In this document: piece after piece, positions 4,990 to 54,404 of the stretch
How positions within the stretch are numbered: position 1 is the stretch's first letter
Layout: each line of letters starts with the position of its first letter
NCBI GenBank assembly: GCA_964589775.1
Contig: CAZPUN010000021.1
Span: 53,768 to 117,767 of the forward strand
Source: an uncultured archaeon
GTDB lineage: Archaea; Asgardarchaeota; Thorarchaeia; Thorarchaeales; CAZPUN01
Length of the DNA: 64,000 nt
Direction of reading: 5' to 3'
Notes under the pieces: model-generated
Databases searched by the model: none
What the model saw: the letters and a program-made list of their open reading frames with translations, nothing else
What the model was told of the DNA's origin: nothing
Translations under genes and position numbers: made by a program

Positions 4990-5071
4990 TTGACACACCC
5001 TCGCACAAATATACAACTTTACATGGTCTAATCAGTACTTAAAATTTTAGTTTTCAAAAATTAGTGATTTC

Positions 5072-5148
5072 GGAAGCACAAGGCTAAAAATAGACTTGAG
5101 AGGAACGCGGGTGACTAGGCTTAGGCAAATAAATAGCCCTGTGCTTCC
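5072..5148. ncRNA. Candidate structured RNA element: a GC-rich island closed by a long-range 11/12-bp helix
   Basis: GGAAGCACAAGG at 5072-5083 pairs with CCCTGTGCTTCC at 5137-5148. About 53 nt of GC-enriched sequence containing GGCTAGG and GGCTTAGG motifs sits between them, in an otherwise AT-rich intergenic region. It does not fold as a tRNA. Confidence 0.2.
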
Positions 5149-5264
5149 AAATGGTAGCAATCTTGAAGGCTAGGTTTTCATTATGCTACGATTATAATAA
5201 TACCACGACTCTATTTAAACTTTATGATACTATATGCACGTATCGATACCATCTGTACGTATAT

Positions 5265-17210: not shown

Positions 17211-18413
17211 CTATTGCATATACGTTTTAATGATTATTGATATTATTGGAATAAGCGACGATGTAACTATTTTTAAGAGCGTGCTCGTAGTGATTGGGAA
17301 TGTTTTATATGCCTTTACTTCTGAAATCATTGAATTCAAAATTTCCATATCCTTATTCAATATCGCTTTGGTTTCCTCAACTTTTTGGCTTCGTCCCATT
17401 GCCATTAGGAGCATGTATTTTTGTTCTAACTCGTCATATACAAGTTCAAATATATCAAGGAAAGAGCGTTTCACATTTCGCATAGATTTCCATATTGTTT
17501 TTGTTGAAATTATTAAGGAAATTAAGGCAAAAAGTGTAAGTATGGATAATGCAAAATAATCTGTACCTTGCAATTTTGTATTGTTTAATATGGCATATAT
17601 AACAATAACGCCGGAGAATGTGATTGTAATCCCTAGAATTGCATATGTTAATATTAGTGGTATTTTCGTGATTTCTTCTATATTTTCTCTAAACCTATGG
17701 AAGGGTTCCATGTGTTCAATTGTTTCGTGTAATTTCTCTATGTTGGGTTTGTCGCTAGTAGCATATAGTATTTCGTTTTTCAATAACGTATTTAAATGCC
17801 ATATTTTGAGATTTTCTTTCTTTATTGCTTTATTGATCATAGTCATAATATAAATTGCTGAATAAACTGCTGCAGAACCATGAAGTATTATAAGCCCAAA
17901 GTATGTTTGGTCGAGGATAAATACAATTATGTTAAATGGAAAGTGGATCAGATATTTACCATAGAACATATAAGAATTAAGACCCAAAATTAATTGGTAA
18001 TTATATATTCCATATATTGCAATTCCCATCAAAAGTCCATATTTTAAATCCTTGTAGTTAAATAAATGGGTTTTAATATCATTTCTTATAATATCAATAT
18101 CTTTTTCATCTTTAATAATGCTTTTCATTATTTTGTAGTATTTACTATCTGGATCTCCATATCCAAACAAGTCAAGTGCTTTTGGAAATAATGTCTTAAT
18201 TGCCAAAAGTGCGATATATACCAGAACAGTAGTTGTGATGTTTATTATGTTGAATGGGTAATCAAAGATACTATATCCTTCAATTTGCATTATTGCTCCG
18301 ATAATAGTGTTTAGTATTAATATGTACAGCGTTAGAATCTTGTAGTCTAAAAATGGTGATCTTAATATAAATAATGTAGCCCCATTATCAAGGTATTTTT
18401 TAAAAGAATTCAT
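17211..18413 (-). CDS. Polytopic membrane protein; paralog of the 18624..19892 protein
   Basis: It has about 10 predicted TM helices. Its C-terminus (LIPIISIIIKTYMQ) resembles the paralog's LPIISVIANTLLKAIF. Confidence 0.5.
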   Translation of the reverse strand: MNSFKKYLDNGATLFILRSPFLDYKILTLYILILNTIIGAIMQIEGYSIFDYPFNIINITTTVLVYIALLAIKTLFPKALDLFGYGDPDSKYYKIMKSIIKDEKDIDIIRNDIKTHLFNYKDLKYGLLMGIAIYGIYNYQLILGLNSYMFYGKYLIHFPFNIIVFILDQTYFGLIILHGSAAVYSAIYIMTMINKAIKKENLKIWHLNTLLKNEILYATSDKPNIEKLHETIEHMEPFHRFRENIEEITKIPLILTYAILGITITFSGVIVIYAILNNTKLQGTDYFALSILTLFALISLIISTKTIWKSMRNVKRSFLDIFELVYDELEQKYMLLMAMGRSQKVEETKAILNKDMEILNSMISEVKAYKTFPITTSTLLKIVTSSLIPIISIIIKTYMQ

Positions 18414-18610
18414 TTATTTCTCCAGTCCTCCTGTTTTTCATCTGGCTCAATTAATATAGCAAGAAGTGCTCCTCCAAAGGCTGATGTGATTGCTAAGAAT
18501 AACCAATCTACTTTATCCTTAAATATTAGGGGTGAAACAATATATGCAACGATAAATGCTATGAATGCCATAACGACCATGCGTAGCTGCATTATCTTGT
18601 AGCTTTTCAA
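18410..18610 (-). CDS. Small two-TM membrane protein (66 aa)
   Basis: It has two hydrophobic helices and overlaps its neighbours at both ends (ATGA). Confidence 0.4.
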   Translation of the reverse strand: MKSYKIMQLRMVVMAFIAFIVAYIVSPLIFKDKVDWLFLAITSAFGGALLAILIEPDEKQEDWRNK

Positions 18611-18623
18611 ATTTTCACCTCCC

Positions 18624-19892
18624 TTATCCTATTTCAATACCAAAAATCGCTTTTAATAATGTATTTGCAATTACGGATATTATGGGTAACACAGTGGCAG
18701 CTAAGACACTCATGAATTGATTCATAGAAATTGGTGAACTTGAAACTGCTGCAATTTCGTTTCCAATATTCTTGACTGTTATATAATCGTTTGTATAATC
18801 TGGGGTATCAAAATTTGTTTCAAAAACATGTGTGATAATTGTATCAAATTGATAAAATTGGATCATATCTAATATTGTATTTATTGCATCTAATGTTTCA
18901 TTTTTAGCTATATTAATGATTTTCCATACACTTCCGACTGGTAATAAGAGAACTGAAAAAGCCATTATTGCAATTACGAATAGGTACATAAAATTAATTG
19001 GATTGAATATGCCTGTTAAATATCCACTATATATCAAGAATGCTGCAACCAGAATTGAAACTGATGAGATCTTAATGGCAATGCTATATGTATATTTTGA
19101 TAATGCACTAAAGCTAGCCTTAAGTTTTCTAAGGGATACACTCTCATTTTTTATTAATTCGAGTTCTTCGCTATTTACTCCTCCTTTTGCAATATCTATT
19201 GCGCGTTCTTTAAGAAGTTTGACGTAATTTGGAAATCTATACAGGGATTCATCACCTAATTTCCAGATTGAATACATGAATCTGAATAATATTGACAAAG
19301 CTGTCCAGACTAATAGATGGAACAACAGGAAAAGAACACGGTCTGTGATAATTGAAATCAGGGCAGCTGTTGGATTGTATATCGTTACTATTGTTGGATC
19401 CAGATTATACGGAACATGAAGTACAAAAAAGTTGTATGTCCAATATGAATTGATTATAATCGACATAATTGCGCCGAATATGACATTTTTACGTGTATAT
19501 ATTCTATTTACGGTTTCATAACGATATTTTTGAAATGTCTCATTATCTTTAAAGATGTTTTTGAGTAATATGTAACTTTTTGGATCGATTTTTCCATTTA
19601 GTCCAAACATTTTCTCAAAATTATCAATACTCGTACTTATTATCCATGCGCCAAATGGATCTGCAATGATTTGTATCATCTGTGCATAGTTTGATTTAAT
19701 TGCATCATAACCCGCTGCAATATATGCCGTTGAAAATTGAACAAAAACAAATATTACGATTGCGAGAAAAGTATATTTTACACTGTACCCAAGTTTTATT
19801 TTTTTAAATATGAAATCATATTTTGTATATATTATTTCTTTAGATAGTCCCGTATCTTTCTCTAAATTCATCAATCCATCCTCCCAATCCAT
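18624..19892 (-). CDS. Polytopic membrane protein; paralog of the 17211..18413 protein
   Basis: It has about 10 TM helices and heads a three-gene operon. Confidence 0.5.
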   Translation of the reverse strand: MDWEDGLMNLEKDTGLSKEIIYTKYDFIFKKIKLGYSVKYTFLAIVIFVFVQFSTAYIAAGYDAIKSNYAQMIQIIADPFGAWIISTSIDNFEKMFGLNGKIDPKSYILLKNIFKDNETFQKYRYETVNRIYTRKNVIFGAIMSIIINSYWTYNFFVLHVPYNLDPTIVTIYNPTAALISIITDRVLFLLFHLLVWTALSILFRFMYSIWKLGDESLYRFPNYVKLLKERAIDIAKGGVNSEELELIKNESVSLRKLKASFSALSKYTYSIAIKISSVSILVAAFLIYSGYLTGIFNPINFMYLFVIAIMAFSVLLLPVGSVWKIINIAKNETLDAINTILDMIQFYQFDTIITHVFETNFDTPDYTNDYITVKNIGNEIAAVSSSPISMNQFMSVLAATVLPIISVIANTLLKAIFGIEIG

Positions 19893-21800: not shown

Positions 21801-22609
21801 TGGTAAAAATGAAGGCGGCATTGCTAACAATTGGAAATGAAATTCTTGAAGGCATAATTGTAAATACCAATTCGGCATGGCTAGCGAGGCGTTTAACTGC
21901 TCTCGGTGTCATAGTCGATATTGAATTAACTATTCGCGATGATCTATCTGAGCAAAAATATTGGTTTAATTGGTTAAAAGATAAGCAATTTGATTTAGTC
22001 ATTTCTACAGGTGGCTTAGGTCCAACTCATGATGATATGACATTACAAGGATTTGCCGAGGCATTTAATTTAGAATTAGAGATTGATCCTAAAGCATATG
22101 AAATTGTAAAAAGGCAATATCGAAAATTCTATGAACAAGGGCTTCTCGATAGTCCTGACATGACGGAATCGCGAACAAAGATGGCTCGGATCCCTGCAGG
22201 TTCTATTCCACTTGACAATAAAGTTGGTGGAGCTCCAGGAGTTCAAATAACAATTGGTAAAACAACGTTTTTCATTCTTCCCGGAGTGCCCGGTGAGATG
22301 AAAAGTATTTTTGAAGAGTCTGTTGTACCCTGGGTAAAAGAAAATTCAGAGGGCGTCTATTATCAAAAAATAGTAGAATTTCCTACAATTGATGAGACAG
22401 GTTTTTCAAAATTCGAAAAGGTTGCAATGAAAAAAGAGCCTCGCGCATATATTAAGTCAATGCCTAAAGTTTATGGTACCGTACAAACATTACGTGTTTG
22501 GGTCTCTTCAAGACAGTCTACACTTGAAGAAGCAAAAGATGCAGTTGAAAATGCTATCAGAGCATTAGAAGAAGCATCAGGCATGAAATCCAATGAAGTT
22601 AAGGATTGA
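21797..22609 (+). CDS. CinA-like / MoaB-MogA-fold molybdopterin-binding domain protein
   Basis: KAALLTIGNEIL, ISTGGLGPTHDDMT and ILPGVPGEM match the CinA N-terminal domain. Confidence 0.7.
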   Translation: MMVKMKAALLTIGNEILEGIIVNTNSAWLARRLTALGVIVDIELTIRDDLSEQKYWFNWLKDKQFDLVISTGGLGPTHDDMTLQGFAEAFNLELEIDPKAYEIVKRQYRKFYEQGLLDSPDMTESRTKMARIPAGSIPLDNKVGGAPGVQITIGKTTFFILPGVPGEMKSIFEESVVPWVKENSEGVYYQKIVEFPTIDETGFSKFEKVAMKKEPRAYIKSMPKVYGTVQTLRVWVSSRQSTLEEAKDAVENAIRALEEASGMKSNEVKD

Positions 22610-22701
22610 ATTATTGCATAAGTATATGTAGAAAGTATGCTTTTTATAGCGGTAATAAATCGCCTAAACGTTCATAAAAGCATATAAAATAGAATATGTA
22701 C

Positions 22702-22862
22702 TTTGAGGACTTAGAATAGGTTACGAGTTTGATATTTCGCATCCAAAAGGTCCTCAAATTGGAGTGATTATCAAGATCCCTCACTGTAATATCGCGAATA
22801 TATTCGTGAATGATTATCATAAGGTAGTCTATACGCAAAATTCTCGTATCTCAATGTGGAAA
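22702..22862 (+). repeat. Dispersed intergenic repeat, copy 1 (about 160 nt)
   Basis: It is about 75-80% identical to copy 2. It contains the TTGAGGAC...GGTCCTCAA inverted repeat, an internal small hairpin and the ATACG...CGTAT hairpin. Confidence 0.7.
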
Positions 22863-23159
22863 GTATCAGGATCTCCATTTGTTCTTATAATAAGTATTTT
22901 TTATTGCATAAGCATAGCGTGATCGAAACCTTTTGAAGAGAATGATGTTTTTGCCGAAATGTTCATAAATGGCTGTGTACAGTTTATGAATGCAATGGGC
23001 GAAGTATATTATAAATAACAGTATCAACTTTAAGATGTCTCTGAGTTTGTTCATAGATATTAAGCAAACCTTAGGCAATGGCAGATTCTCGTATGACGAA
23101 GTGTTAGAGCCGATTCTTCAATAACAGATTCAAAAATGAAAATTTGTATGTCCCAATAG

Positions 23160-23240
23160 ACACACAAAAGATCCATGTTAATAGAGATCTCCTGCTGCTG
23201 GTATAGTGCGTATATATGTACGAAATGGCTATATTTCCAT
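23160..23240 (+). repeat. Partial or degenerate copy of the same repeat
   Basis: ACAAAAGATCC...AGAGATCTCCTG...GCGTATATATGTACGAAATGGCTAT matches the 3' half of copies 2 and 3. Confidence 0.45.
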
Positions 23241-23322
23241 ACATATATACTCAGAATATCCAAAGCTTATCGCAATAAGTATGCCATTAGTATCCGAATT
23301 TAATATAAAATGGTGAAATACA

Positions 23323-24069
23323 ATGATATTAGAATTTCCAGATATGAATGACTTTATTGTCTTCATGATTGCAGTTGGATATGCTGGACTTGTAATAATT
23401 ATTGGTGATTTGCTTAAGCGAAAAGCCAATTTAGATACAGGATTCACTAGAAAAATAATTCATATCTTCGCCGGTATGGCTACTTTTTCAATTCCATATT
23501 ATACACATCCATGGATGGCTATTTTTGTCGCATTGATCTTCGTAATAATTCTTGGATTAGCCAATTCAAATCGTTTTTCGTCTGCGTTTTCAGCTATGGC
23601 TCGACCTGAAGAAATTGAGCAAGGCTTACTAAAAGGTCCTTTCATTTATTCGATTTCGATTACGCTGTTAGTTTCAATCTTTACATTGCTCGATAAAACT
23701 CAATATTATTTTCTTGCTGCAATTCCGCTTCAAATTATGTATTTTGGTGACGGTCTTGCTGCTCCAATTGGAATAAAATATGGCAAACATGAATGGATCA
23801 TTAATGGTTCAAAGCGAACGCTTGAAGGCACAATGGGTTTAATTTTATTTGGATTTATTGGTGCAATATTTGCTGGCTGGTTCTTCGGAATTTATAATTA
23901 TGGAATCCTCACGTGGCAATTATTATTCTTCTATTCGATAATTGCGATCATAGTTGCTGCAATTCTTGAGTTTATTTCTCCAAAGGGTCTAGATAATTTT
24001 GTTCTCCCAATTGGAACATGTGTTGTCCTAGTTTTTATTGCAATCTTAAATGGATTGTTAATAATTTAG
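23323..24069 (+). CDS. Polytopic membrane protein of the CTP-dependent transferase superfamily (CdsA / CarS / dolichol-kinase-like)
   Basis: It has 6-7 TM helices. The C-terminal KYGKHEWIINGSKRTLEGTMG resembles the K..T.EG..GG CTP-binding motif of this superfamily. The specific activity is unknown. Confidence 0.4.
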   Translation: MILEFPDMNDFIVFMIAVGYAGLVIIIGDLLKRKANLDTGFTRKIIHIFAGMATFSIPYYTHPWMAIFVALIFVIILGLANSNRFSSAFSAMARPEEIEQGLLKGPFIYSISITLLVSIFTLLDKTQYYFLAAIPLQIMYFGDGLAAPIGIKYGKHEWIINGSKRTLEGTMGLILFGFIGAIFAGWFFGIYNYGILTWQLLFFYSIIAIIVAAILEFISPKGLDNFVLPIGTCVVLVFIAILNGLLII

Positions 24070-24200
24070 TGAATCTCCTTATTTTTCTTTATTTTTACTT
24101 TTTTGAAATAAGATGGCTACAAGGAACTTGTTGTTTTGTAGGTTGCAATAAATTATCAAAAAGTTAATAAAAGTCTGAACTTATCAAATAAATTAAGTAA

Positions 24201-24357
24201 TTTGAGGATTTAGAATGGGTTGCGAATCTATTCGCATCCAAAAAGGTCCTCAAATTGAAGCGATTCACAAGCTCCCTCATTGGGGTGCCGCGAGTATATG
24301 TGCGAAATGGCTATCTCAAGGTAGCCTATACGCACACTCGTATCTCGATGTGGGGGT
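24201..24357 (+). repeat. Dispersed intergenic repeat, copy 2
   Basis: See copy 1. It has the TTGAGGAT...GGTCCTCAA stem (U-G instead of C-G), a GCGAAT/ATTCGC hairpin and ATACG/CGTAT. Confidence 0.7.
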
Positions 24358-24456
24358 TTGTCAGAGAACATAGAATTCCTATGTGAGGTGTATGTTGGTA
24401 GGCTTACGCGTTGCATTTTTATAGTAGTTCTTTCAATATTTTTAATATAAACGAAA

Positions 24457-24759
24457 ATGGTGAGTAACATGATTATTCTTGAATACGAAGGATCTCAATT
24501 CCATGAAGTGAATCAAGCAAATTCAAATAAAATTACTCTTACAATTGATGAAGCTGCAAAGAAAATGATTCTCTATGTCCCACATGGGGCATCAATGATT
24601 CAGCGTCGTGCAGCCGAGCGACAAGCACGTGGTTTTGTCAAAACCGGTTATCATCCATCCAGTGGTGGACGCGTAGGAATTGGGTTCGAATTCGTAGTGG
24701 AGGGCGAAGGTGGTAATCTGCCCGACATTCTTACAAAGAGTCCAAGAGAAGTTTACTAA
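24457..24759 (+). CDS. Hypothetical small protein (100 aa) with a GC-rich 3' half
   Basis: The ORF is intact. Its second half is compositionally atypical for this genome (GYHPSSGGRVGIGFEFVVEGEGG). It is followed by a strong hairpin terminator. Confidence 0.35.
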   Translation: MVSNMIILEYEGSQFHEVNQANSNKITLTIDEAAKKMILYVPHGASMIQRRAAERQARGFVKTGYHPSSGGRVGIGFEFVVEGEGGNLPDILTKSPREVY

Positions 24760-45315: not shown

Positions 45316-45632
45316 ACACTCATCACCTCATAATCCAATTGGATTTTATCAATATAAAAGTTGCTTATTTAACTTATTACTTTTTCTTAACGATTTTCGC
45401 ATATTTTTTGTAATATTTTCATTTTTATCGACAATATATTACAATAATAACAAAAATTATTCCCAACAATTAAAAAAAGTATAAATCTTTTATGAATAGT
45501 CTCGAAATTCATAGACTTATTTGAGAAATATGCAAGTATTACAAATTATGTGTAAAAAAGCATCGATTTTTTTAAAGTGGTGTCGGCTTGCCTAAGCACT
45601 CAAAGTGTAAGCTTATAACAAAAATCACATAA

Positions 45633-45806
45633 ATTGAAGATTTAGAATATGTCATAACTTGAATTTAGCACATCCAAAAAGATCCTCAAAAGAAAATTAA
45701 AACGATAACCAAAGATCTCTCAATGGAGCTAGGCGAGTATATGCACTAAATGTAAATCATAAACTTGTCTATATAATGCAGAACCCTCCCGTCTCAATAC
45801 GGGACG
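45633..45806 (+). repeat. Dispersed intergenic repeat, copy 3 (more diverged)
   Basis: It contains TTGAAGATTTAGAATA...CATCCAAAAAGATCCTCAAA...GCGAGTATATGCACTAAATG...TCCCG-TCTCAATA-CGGGA. Confidence 0.55.
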
Positions 45807-45967
45807 TATTAGGTAGCTAAAAATATTTAATTATTTGAGTGTTAATACATCTATTAGCAATAGAAATTATTTGCAAAGGTGTAATGTATCACACAAGCAT
45901 AGTAATTTAATATTGGAGGCATATAAAGCTGGAAGACCAAAATTGCAAAGATGCATATGACATCATA

Positions 45968-46297
45968 ATGCTCTTATCAAGCCACAACGTACTTCGTAGA
46001 AATATTATCCTTACATTAGCACATATCTATCCGAAAAGTATCTCTGGAGTTCAACTGGCAAAATTAATCGGATATAGTGGTCAATCAAAGACTCTATATC
46101 GTGGAGTCTTAAAACATCTATCGGAGGATCAGTTGATCCTTGTAGATCAACTAACTCCTCGAATGTATGCAATAAGGATAAATCACGAACATCCTCTCAT
46201 GAAAAGTTTGATTGAATTATGTAAAAAGTACGGTCAAGACTTGAGGAAAATCTATCTTGACGCCTTAGGAGCTGAATTTAATGAAAAGCACAACTGA
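45968..46297 (+). CDS. Small winged-helix transcriptional regulator (ArsR/MarR-like)
   Basis: ILTLAHIYPKSISGVQLAKLIGYSGQSKTLYRGVLKHLSEDQLIL is wHTH-like. Confidence 0.4.
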   Translation: MLLSSHNVLRRNIILTLAHIYPKSISGVQLAKLIGYSGQSKTLYRGVLKHLSEDQLILVDQLTPRMYAIRINHEHPLMKSLIELCKKYGQDLRKIYLDALGAEFNEKHN

Positions 46298-51113: not shown

Positions 51114-52811
51114 TTATTTTTTGATTCTTTTTTCCTTTATAATTTTTAATAATTCTTTAAGTCCATTTTCAATGGACGGCCCTGTAATAATCGAAGTTTC
51201 TGTAAATAATGCTGGTAGTCCATTTTCGGCCTCTCTAGCTTTTGATATCAATTTGATTTTCTCTAATGCTTCGTCCTTTGAAACCGGTGCCTCGCCCATA
51301 TCCTGATCATTCGCAGTGATAATGCGTAAATCAATTTTGTTTCCAACAATAAGAATTGGTGTTTCAGGCCCTAACATTTGATTTATTTCTTTAACCCAAT
51401 AGTCAATACTCTGATAGCTCCATCGATCTACAACTGAATATACGATTATCGCTGCTTCTGCATCTGCATAGAATTTTCCACGTGTAATCTTTATTTTCTT
51501 AGCTTCATTCAAAGGCCAAATTTCTGTATCAAAAGCAACGTCCTTCAATGGAATTTCTTTTGTAAGAATTCTCATTGTGCTTAATGATGTTATTTGTTCT
51601 TCTTGTTCGTTGAACCCTATATTTTCAAATAGTGAACTCATTCCTACGTCATCTTCACCTAATACAACAACTTTAACTTTGTATTTGGGTAGTTCTCTTA
51701 CAACTAATGTCTCTACTTCTTCTTTTTCTGTGGTTGGCGTCTCTGTAGGTGCTTCCACTTTGGTTTCTATGGCGGGTGCTTCCACTTTGGTTTCTATGGC
51801 GGGTGCTTCCACTTTGGTTTCATTTGATACAATTTCGGGTTTAGAGGCTGATTCAGGAGTTATCTGTTTTTCATCACTATCATATTTTGTAGTCATCTGA
51901 TCAATAATTCTCAATGTGTATGAAACTAGATCTTCTTCTGTTGTACTTTGTTTAATTGTTTCCTCCATAATTTGCTCTAGGACTTCTTCATCAGTTTTTT
52001 CAATTTGGGGTATTATAATTTTTCTTTCATGTGTAGACTCTTCCACTTTAGTTTCTGTGGTAGGTGCTTCTACTTTAGTTTCTACGGGAGGGCCTTCCAC
52101 TTTAGTTTCTGTGGTGGGTGCTTCCACTTTGGTTTCTGTGGTGGGTGCTTCCACTTTGGTTTCTGTGGTGGGTGCTTCCACTTTGGTTTCTATGGCGGGT
52201 GCTTCCACTTTGGTTTCTATGGCGGGTGCTTCCACTTTGGTTTCTATGGCGGGTGCTTCCACTTTAGTTTCTGTGGCGGGTGCTTCCACTTTAGTTTCTA
52301 CGGGAGGGACTTCCACTTTGGTTTCTGTGGTGGGTGTTTTCACTTTAGTTTCTATGGCGGGTGCTTCTACTTTGGTTTCGCTTTTTCTTGTAGGGATCAC
52401 TTCTTCAATTATGTCACTAATTATTTTTGACTTATCAATAATCGGCTTTTTATCTGATTCTGGTATTGGCTTAGAAGTAGGTTCTATCGCTTCTGTTTGA
52501 GTTTCCTTAATTTCAGGTTTGATTGGTTCGACGGACCCCCAGATATCATCTGACTCAGGCTCTGGTTTAATTTCCTCTACTTCTACGAAGATTTTCTTAG
52601 CCTTTGGTATTCCAATCTTTAGCATGACTTCTTCAACTAATGCCGGCGGCAGTATCTTTCCTTTATAATAAAAGAAACGTTCTAGTTCTTTTCGGACTTG
52701 ATCAAATGACTTTCCTTTTACTGGAATTGTTTTTATTAATCTGCCTTTATCCTTAATGCGTATTGTTTTTTGCTCCAATGTTATTCCAAATGTTGTTCCT
52801 GGGACAATCAA
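51114..52811 (-). CDS. Multidomain protein with an N-terminal domain, a long (E-T-K-V-E-A-P-A/T-I/T)n tandem-repeat linker and a C-terminal Ras-like GTPase domain with a degenerate P-loop
   Basis: The C-terminal domain has KVKVVVLGEDDVGMSSL (G1 with Met in place of Lys), VGNKIDL (G4) and FTETSII (G5). The middle carries at least 16 copies of a 9-aa repeat. Confidence 0.6.
   Translation of the reverse strand: MIVPGTTFGITLEQKTIRIKDKGRLIKTIPVKGKSFDQVRKELERFFYYKGKILPPALVEEVMLKIGIPKAKKIFVEVEEIKPEPESDDIWGSVEPIKPEIKETQTEAIEPTSKPIPESDKKPIIDKSKIISDIIEEVIPTRKSETKVEAPAIETKVKTPTTETKVEVPPVETKVEAPATETKVEAPAIETKVEAPAIETKVEAPAIETKVEAPTTETKVEAPTTETKVEAPTTETKVEGPPVETKVEAPTTETKVEESTHERKIIIPQIEKTDEEVLEQIMEETIKQSTTEEDLVSYTLRIIDQMTTKYDSDEKQITPESASKPEIVSNETKVEAPAIETKVEAPAIETKVEAPTETPTTEKEEVETLVVRELPKYKVKVVVLGEDDVGMSSLFENIGFNEQEEQITSLSTMRILTKEIPLKDVAFDTEIWPLNEAKKIKITRGKFYADAEAAIIVYSVVDRWSYQSIDYWVKEINQMLGPETPILIVGNKIDLRIITANDQDMGEAPVSKDEALEKIKLISKAREAENGLPALFTETSIITGPSIENGLKELLKIIKEKRIKK
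51745..51830. repeat. 27-nt in-frame tandem repeat, block 1 (about 3 units)
   Basis: GGTGCTTCCACTTTGGTTTCTATGGCG is repeated head-to-tail. It encodes AIETKVEAP on the minus strand. Confidence 0.85.
52035..52385. repeat. 27-nt in-frame tandem repeat, block 2 (about 13 units)
   Basis: It is the same unit with wobble variants (TCTATGGCG / TCTGTGGTG / TCTACGGGA). Confidence 0.85.
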
Positions 52812-54175: not shown

Positions 54176-54404
54176 TTGCCGATAGATCCCCTTCTACCAG
54201 TTTTTCTATCTTTCTATTTTTCCCGCAATATAATTCTTAACAGAAATTTATATAAGTAATAGCTTTCAATAGTAAATTAATATTTATTAACAAATTTATA
54301 CACTTGGGGGATTAGATATTCTATCTCAAAAAAAGGATTTCGAGAAAGACTCAATTGTACAACATTTAAAACAATTTGGATTATCAACATATGAAGCGGC
54401 TGTC

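Follow-up and report, generated by a model that had tools for sequence, protein, structure and literature searches.

A mostly decayed intergenic repeat family in an Asgard archaeon, with one copy that is a credible orphan small-RNA gene

The repeats and the empty sites in a sister genome

The spacers on either side of a gene for a polyprenol/phytol-kinase-like membrane protein (the kinase gene, 23323-24069) hold members of an intergenic repeat family, in a 64,000-nucleotide (nt) stretch of DNA from an uncultured Asgard archaeon (Thorarchaeia; GenBank assembly GCA_964589775.1, contig CAZPUN010000021.1) that is referred to here, at its full length, as the window. The family comprises three full plus-strand copies, numbered 1 to 3, and one or two scrambled tandem relics (Table 1); all copies lie between genes and in the same orientation, as an earlier note on this DNA had stated. 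It is real, mostly dead and lineage-specific. Copy 2, in the spacer after the kinase gene, can credibly be seen as an orphan small-RNA gene, or as the intact copy of a small mobile module.

Copies 1 and 2 are identical at 160 of 199 positions (22654-22859 against 24147-24353; 75-77% by BLAST), which bears out the similarity of ~75-80% given in that note, and copy 3, likewise listed there, has an identity of 74% to copy 1 and of ~68-76% to copy 2 (45609-45813; the nhmmer match spans 45536-45822, with E = 9e-72). Conserved 20-mers occur two to three times each, against 0.02-0.03 times in shuffled sequence. Homology starts ~50-90 nt upstream of the first hairpin, which makes the unit ~290 nt long and not ~160 nt as first described, and its size is near-constant across sites (~282-290 nt). 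The GC content is 45% in copy 2, 35% in copy 1 and 33% in copy 3. Repeats were searched for with BLAST, nhmmer and a covariance model, R1, and the window was extended by ~19 kb of flanking sequence, giving ~83 kb of the source genome in all. Neither nhmmer nor R1 found further copies in these 19 kb, and a fifth trace suspected at 54300-54380 gave no nhmmer or covariance-model match at E <= 10.

The relics following copy 1 contain blocks that match unit 1 in scrambled order (22901-22916, 22953-22969 and 23085-23103), and a further fragment at 23185-23258. A partial copy reported at ~23160-23240 does exist, matching copy 2 at 19 of 20 positions in 23213-23232, but is weak (nhmmer E = 0.049 at 23185-23232). 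Only the tandem units are bracketed by the 16-mer direct repeat TTATTGCATAAGTATA. This 16-mer carries a small dyad (TTAT-N3/4-ATAAG), is conserved at 15 of 16 positions, far above the intervening unit bodies, and might serve as an operator or as a site of recombination.

The only close relative in the collections, referred to here as the sister, is represented by GCA_053940065.1 / GCA_053985755.1 and matching Logan contigs; its proteins are 81-99% identical to those of the window. Gene order is the same, but the sister lacks the element at each of the three loci. From the MoCF gene to the kinase gene, the spacer measures 70 nt in the sister and 713 nt in the window, that between the kinase gene and a gene for a 96-amino-acid (aa) protein 128 nt and 387 nt, and that between the genes for a 189-aa and a 109-aa protein 387 nt and 652 nt. 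Around copy 2, the left flank aligns with the sister as far as ...TTGAAATAAGA and the right flank from TTACGCGTTGCATTTTTATAG... onward, the insert being 24114-24403. Copy 3 has a sharp right junction at 45817/45818, and loci L050 and L051 of the sister lack the element. At their right ends copies 2 and 3 resemble each other (GTATGTTGGTAGGC and GTATTAGGTAGC) and break off exactly where sister homology restarts; the left junctions have only ...AAG in common, and the left ends are not conserved between copies. In more distant relatives (loci L054 and L064, where synteny differs) the element is absent upstream of the homologue of the gene at 45968, and neither R1 nor nhmmer found a match in ~50 kb of the sister genome or in more distant relatives. 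Because all three loci are empty in the sister, the repeat family is a gain in the window's lineage.

Unconstrained intergenic sequence has diverged by 31-33% between the window and the sister, and the copies differ from one another by 20-33%; judged by these distances, the copies could be about as old as the lineage split. Dating copy 3 from the divergence of its flanks was uninformative, as the neutral sister divergence equals the copy divergence. Protein identity to the sister is very uneven, at 99% for the 109-aa protein (gene 45968-46297) and 81% for the kinase, which may reflect strong constraint or recombination between lineages. The source genome is AT-rich (GC ~33%). Neighbouring genes in the window encode a Ras-family small GTPase, Alg13/14-like glycosyltransferases and a Roadblock/LC7 protein, and the nearest named matches of the local proteins are metagenome-assembled-genome proteins of Thorarchaeota (~50% identity) and Heimdallarchaeota (64%).

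Table 1 Positions of the repeats and of the elements of copy 2 in the window (bp, base pairs; MFE, minimum free energy; BRE, B-recognition element)
Feature	Positions	Strand	Description
Copy 1 unit	22611-22900	+	Core hairpin region 22699-22875; decayed; 80% identical to copy 2; absent from sister
Tandem relics	22901-23266	+	One or two scrambled, strongly decayed units between MoCF gene and kinase gene, after copy 1
Partial copy within relics	~23166-23258	+	nhmmer E = 0.049-0.058; 23213-23232 matches copy 2
16-mer TTATTGCATAAGTATA	22611, 22901; variant form 23267-23282	+	Brackets tandem units
Copy 2 unit	24114-24403	+	290 nt; core 24198-24361; absent from sister kinase/96-aa-gene spacer (alignment with sister locus L040)
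Promoter-like BRE/TATA box AAAGTTAATAAA	24160-24171	+	Upstream of copy 2, 38 nt before first H1 pair
Copy 2 hairpin H1	24198-24257	+	24 bp in MFE structure; outer stem AAUUUGAGGAUUU/AGGUCCUCAAAUU, inner stem GCGAA/UUCGC
Copy 2 hairpin H2	24267-24361	+	37 bp; 1x1 mismatch, 3-nt and 4-nt bulges, 4x4 internal loop, UCAA apical loop
Copy 3 unit	45536-45817	+	Core 45630-45813; most decayed full copy; divergent intergenic region

The fold of copy 2 and the decay of copies 1 and 3

The core of copy 2 has an exceptional, strand-specific fold, reaching -77.2 kcal/mol (z = -8.0) on the plus strand against -50.7 kcal/mol (z = -3.8) on the minus strand. Each of its two hairpins is stable when folded alone, H1 at -26 kcal/mol (z = -6.6) and H2 at -51.2 kcal/mol (z = -7.9). 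G-U pairs account for 11 of the 61 pairs, eight of them in H2, and there are no A.C appositions inside the helices. Owing to this strand specificity, the richness in G-U and the lack of A.C appositions, the modelled asymmetry fits selection on a single-stranded plus-strand molecule, but not a plain DNA palindrome.

Copies 1 and 3 fold no better than shuffled sequence on either strand. For copy 1, z is -1.1 on the plus strand and -1.4 on the minus strand over the core, and -2.2 for H1 and -1.4 for H2 folded alone (plus strand); the corresponding values for copy 3 are -2.1, -1.3, 0.0 and -1.7. By these models, only copy 2 is convincingly structured. The copy 2 structure was projected on the three-copy alignment and compared with a neutral null in which each paired base is redrawn from the between-copy substitutions: 46 of the 61 pairs are intact in copy 1 (neutral expectation 47.6 +/- 3.1) and 36 of 61 in copy 3 (35.4 +/- 3.8). 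Paired columns are no more alike than unpaired ones (identity 0.79 against 0.79, and 0.67 against 0.70), conservation forms no block along the element beyond chance, and the RNAalifold covariation term is unfavourable (+1.46). Double-sided pair changes number 6 against 2.7 in shuffles (3/500), a weak excess drawn from three sequences and scored on a structure taken from one of them. Owing to the neutral level of intact pairs, the equal identity of paired and unpaired columns and the unfavourable RNAalifold term, there is no apparent selection on structure in the family as a whole, and copies 1 and 3 decay neutrally.

These results revise the earlier note, which had read compensatory substitutions into a hairpin architecture shared by the copies. 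The single-sided changes that it quoted are present (C-G/U-G/U-A in the outer stem, G-U/A-U in the inner hairpin), but its claim that pairing is preserved wherever the copies differ fails against the pair counts. Its ATACG/CGTAT hairpin is not common to all copies, being absent from copy 3, and the loop indel is 3 nt rather than 2 nt, so the reading frame is not broken there; frame-breaking indels of 4, 1 and 1 nt do exist elsewhere between the copies. The compensatory pattern is unsupported because copies 1 and 3 keep their pairs at the neutral rate, change in stems as in loops, and fold like shuffled sequence. Covariation lacks statistical support, an outcome that the note had itself listed as telling against its proposal, and the pair changes it quoted are such as drift produces. 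Its structured plus-strand RNA is borne out for copy 2, which combines a z of -8.0 with strand specificity, G-U richness and a promoter-like box, and not for the family as a whole. Protein coding is excluded by the frame-breaking indels together with the 52-aa open reading frame (ORF) of copy 2, whose sole match among 5.8 billion and 1.84 billion proteins is itself.

The history of substitutions also sets copy 2 apart. Copy 2 stands alone at 14 sites where copies 1 and 3 agree, and at 11 of these it has G/C against their A/T; AT-to-GC against GC-to-AT changes number 11 versus 1 on the copy-2 branch and 4 versus 7 on the copy-1 branch (Fisher p = 0.009). Seven positions that are properly paired in copy 2 have a mismatch, mostly A.C, that is shared by copies 1 and 3. 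The GC enrichment of copy 2, which runs counter to the AT bias of the genome, is concentrated at pair-forming positions. Two histories are conceivable: copy 2 has mended the flaws of an imperfect ancestor, or it stayed intact and copies 1 and 3 stem from an already decayed intermediate. Under either rooting, these substitutions point to structure having been selected on the copy-2 lineage only.

A candidate small RNA and its rivals

The pattern AAAGTTWAWWWW, to which the box upstream of copy 2 belongs, occurs five times in the ~83 kb of source genome, one of them at 24160. The remaining four precede, by 27-42 nt, a tRNA-Leu gene, a tRNA-like gene, a protein gene and a candidate RNA on the minus strand (5070-5196); the tRNA-Leu was called by both tools, and the second, tRNA-like gene was read by eye. 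Copy 1 has a degraded form of the box (AAACGTTCATAAA), and copy 3 has lost it. The tRNA-type box at 24160, standing at the right distance, favours independent transcription of copy 2, with a putative start at ~24187-24194. With a promoter box so placed and a stable strand-specific fold, copy 2 has what is looked for in a small-RNA gene.

Our preferred reading, held tentatively and at somewhat less than even confidence, is that copy 2 is an orphan lineage-specific small-RNA gene and that the other copies are decayed duplicates. The lineage would have gained a ~290-nt module, in which two hairpins come after a promoter-like 5' part, and this module would have been copied as DNA, promoter included, into three intergenic sites, one of them in tandem. 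Copy 2 alone would remain intact, specifying a small non-coding RNA of ~170-230 nt that starts near 24190 and is predicted to form a 60-nt 5' hairpin and a 95-nt G-U-rich 3' hairpin, while copies 1 and 3 and the tandem relics would be non-functional duplicates drifting toward the AT-rich background. The RNA would act in trans, its hairpins giving stability or a protein-binding surface and its hinge GAAGCGAUUCA and 3' tail being free for pairing; we infer its transcription, start, end and mode of action together.

Several observations weigh against this reading. No clear oligo-T terminator follows H2, the next T5 run (24413-24417) lying in the TATA region of the neighbouring gene, and no antisense target longer than 11 nt was found within the window. 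In the searches possible, no homologue was found outside the source genome, and hence no independent covariation. The copy-2 branch is no shorter than the copy-1 branch (14 versus 11 changes), which agrees with simple purifying selection only if the tree is rooted on the copy-2 branch. To be gained repeatedly as a defined unit, at intergenic sites that lie apart, is moreover what one expects of a mobile element.

The main rival, which we regard as possible but on the unlikely side, is a non-autonomous mobile element moved in trans, such as a hairpin-bearing IS200/IS605-type derivative that transposes as single-stranded DNA. Copy 2 would then be a young insertion and the others old and decayed, and the plus-strand fold would serve transposition and have no RNA function. 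Movement of this kind would account for the three loci that are empty in the sister and for the element-free loci L054 and L064, for units of like size at each site, and for right ends of copies 2 and 3 that resemble each other and stop where sister homology resumes. A single orientation, lacking terminal inverted repeats and target duplications, is also the look of an IS200/IS605 relative, and a strand-specific fold would be in keeping with a single-stranded DNA intermediate; more than 65% of Asgard genomes are reported to contain IS200/IS605 elements (PMC13343696). Yet the ~83 kb of source genome contain no transposase, neither TnpA nor a TnpB-like gene, and just 4-5 copies, all on the plus strand, 67-80% identical and none near-identical, the 19-kb flanks adding no more. 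The hairpins are large, mutually unlike and internal, not matched and subterminal, the left ends are unconserved, and the promoter box is kept in the intact copy only. That copy 2 is instead the active master of an unrecognised Asgard mobile module, a promoter with a two-hairpin RNA, spreading with neither terminal repeats nor target duplications, we consider a long shot; by analogy, its RNA might aid its own mobilisation or be a hairpin precursor of small guide RNAs, a role like that of transposon-borne omega or bridge RNAs or of Argonaute-guide precursors.

Functionless segmental duplication of intergenic DNA, with the fold of copy 2 a historical accident, would explain why copies 1 and 3 diverge uniformly and neutrally, why the divergence among copies (20-33%) resembles that of neutral intergenic sequence from the sister, and why no conservation was found outside the source genome. 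We hold it improbable: a z of -8 spread over two separate hairpins, with G-U pairs and no A.C in the helices, is not expected by accident, and the GC enrichment, which runs against the genome's AT bias, centres on pair-forming positions. Least probable of all is the cis-acting 5' leader or riboswitch-like element that the earlier note had offered as an option. A plus-strand gene in the same orientation does follow each copy at 100-460 nt, but a shared leader is unlikely because the downstream genes are unrelated (the kinase-like membrane protein, an unknown 96-100-aa protein and the 109-aa protein, which has no family match), because their sister orthologues lack the element, and because copy 2 is separated from gene 24457/24469 by ~70 nt of that gene's conserved promoter and 5' untranslated region. 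Besides, neither copy 1 nor copy 3 is structured, and there is no Rfam riboswitch match.

Related systems, neighbouring features and meaning

No Rfam 15 family matches at gathering thresholds anywhere in the window, and relaxed Rfam searches of 22500-24500 and 24150-24420 returned chance-level matches only (E >= 0.9), in agreement with the earlier note, which knew of no matching family. A conserved structured RNA family is not supported: compensatory changes do not exceed neutral drift, and no homologues were found in the related genomes searched. Exact-pattern scans of GTDB genomes, JGI metagenomes and IMG/VR gave chance matches in unrelated coding DNA, but these scans require the exact motif, do not include the source genome, as the window's own copies were not among their matches, and have little to say on divergent relatives; plasmids and phages gave no blastn match.

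Among mobile-element classes, a canonical MITE (miniature inverted-repeat transposable element) lacks support: the copies share no terminal inverted repeats, the internal hairpins being the sole inverted repeats, and the sister junctions show no target-site duplication, so neither of the marks by which the earlier note would have recognised a MITE was found. An integron attC site or gene cassette is rejected, as the hairpin bases lack the RYYYAAC and GTTRRRY core motifs, no integrase lies nearby, and the flanked kinase gene occupies the same place in the sister without the repeats. Guide RNAs of the H/ACA or C/D type do not fit internal loops of 3-4 nt, the lack of ACA directly after the stems and the lack of an Rfam snoRNA match, and a retron msr-msd RNA is rejected since neighbouring genes contain no reverse-transcriptase domain. 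What seems target-like in the junctions (TTGCAT...TATA) resembles promoter sequence of a generic, AT-rich kind.

The omega RNAs of TnpB/IscB and the bridge RNA of IS110 were also considered and rejected. They resemble the present element as structured RNAs of ~150-200 nt within a mobile unit, but no TnpB, IscB or IS110 recombinase is adjacent here, there is no Rfam match, and internal loops of 3-4 nt are far too small to be the guide loops of a bridge RNA. ERIC, BOX, Correia, the SM-type MITEs of Sulfolobus and IS200/IS605 derivatives come closer, as 200-300-nt intergenic units that are present or absent between close relatives, share an orientation and fold strongly as single strands when intact. 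The present repeats differ from these in the lack of terminal inverted repeats and target-site duplications, in their very low copy number with none near-identical and no cognate transposase seen (83 kb), and in hairpins that are internal and not terminal. LhrC1-5 of Listeria and Qrr1-5 of Vibrio are multi-copy small-RNA gene families that arose by tandem and dispersed duplication. Like them, the repeats are short intergenic units with their own promoter, partly in tandem and confined to one lineage, for hairpin-rich RNAs of 100-200 nt; unlike them, where all paralogues keep structure and function, only one copy does so here and the rest decay neutrally.

Other features of the region were noted in passing. 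A candidate structured RNA lies between two minus-strand genes (5070-5223, minus strand; fold z = -4.3; no Rfam match), with a tRNA-type promoter box AAAGTTTAAATA at 5223-5212 and an 18-bp perfect stem, UUGGAAGCACAGGGCUAU / UAGCCUUGUGCUUCCGA, closing a ~47-nt loop. About 2 kb to the left of the window start (locus L058, 7151-7250) is a tRNA-like gene, GGCCCGG...CCGGGCCCCA, whose T-arm region seems to carry an insert; the gene was missed by ARAGORN and by the Rfam gathering search and is followed by a GC-rich hairpin region at L058 7380-7440. The 565-aa minus-strand ORF 51114-52811 contains at least 14 tandem copies of a 27-nt unit (nine codons) at 51671-52417. A variable island on the minus strand (17211-19892) holds two genes, of 400 and 422 aa, where the sister has six small unrelated genes between the same flanks; the two proteins have no Pfam, NCBIfam or PDB match, and no transposase was found near the repeats.

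Similarity between repeat copies, together with a few pair-preserving changes, should not be taken for covariation. Because only one copy still looks like a working small-RNA gene while the others decay, the element is a candidate orphan RNA and not a conserved RNA family; it defines no conserved RNA class and has no bearing on a long-standing question. Expression of copy 2, if it occurs, would add another orphan small RNA to an Asgard lineage that has been little studied, and would make of it a tidy case of how a small-RNA gene arises, duplicates and decays, set against empty sister sites.

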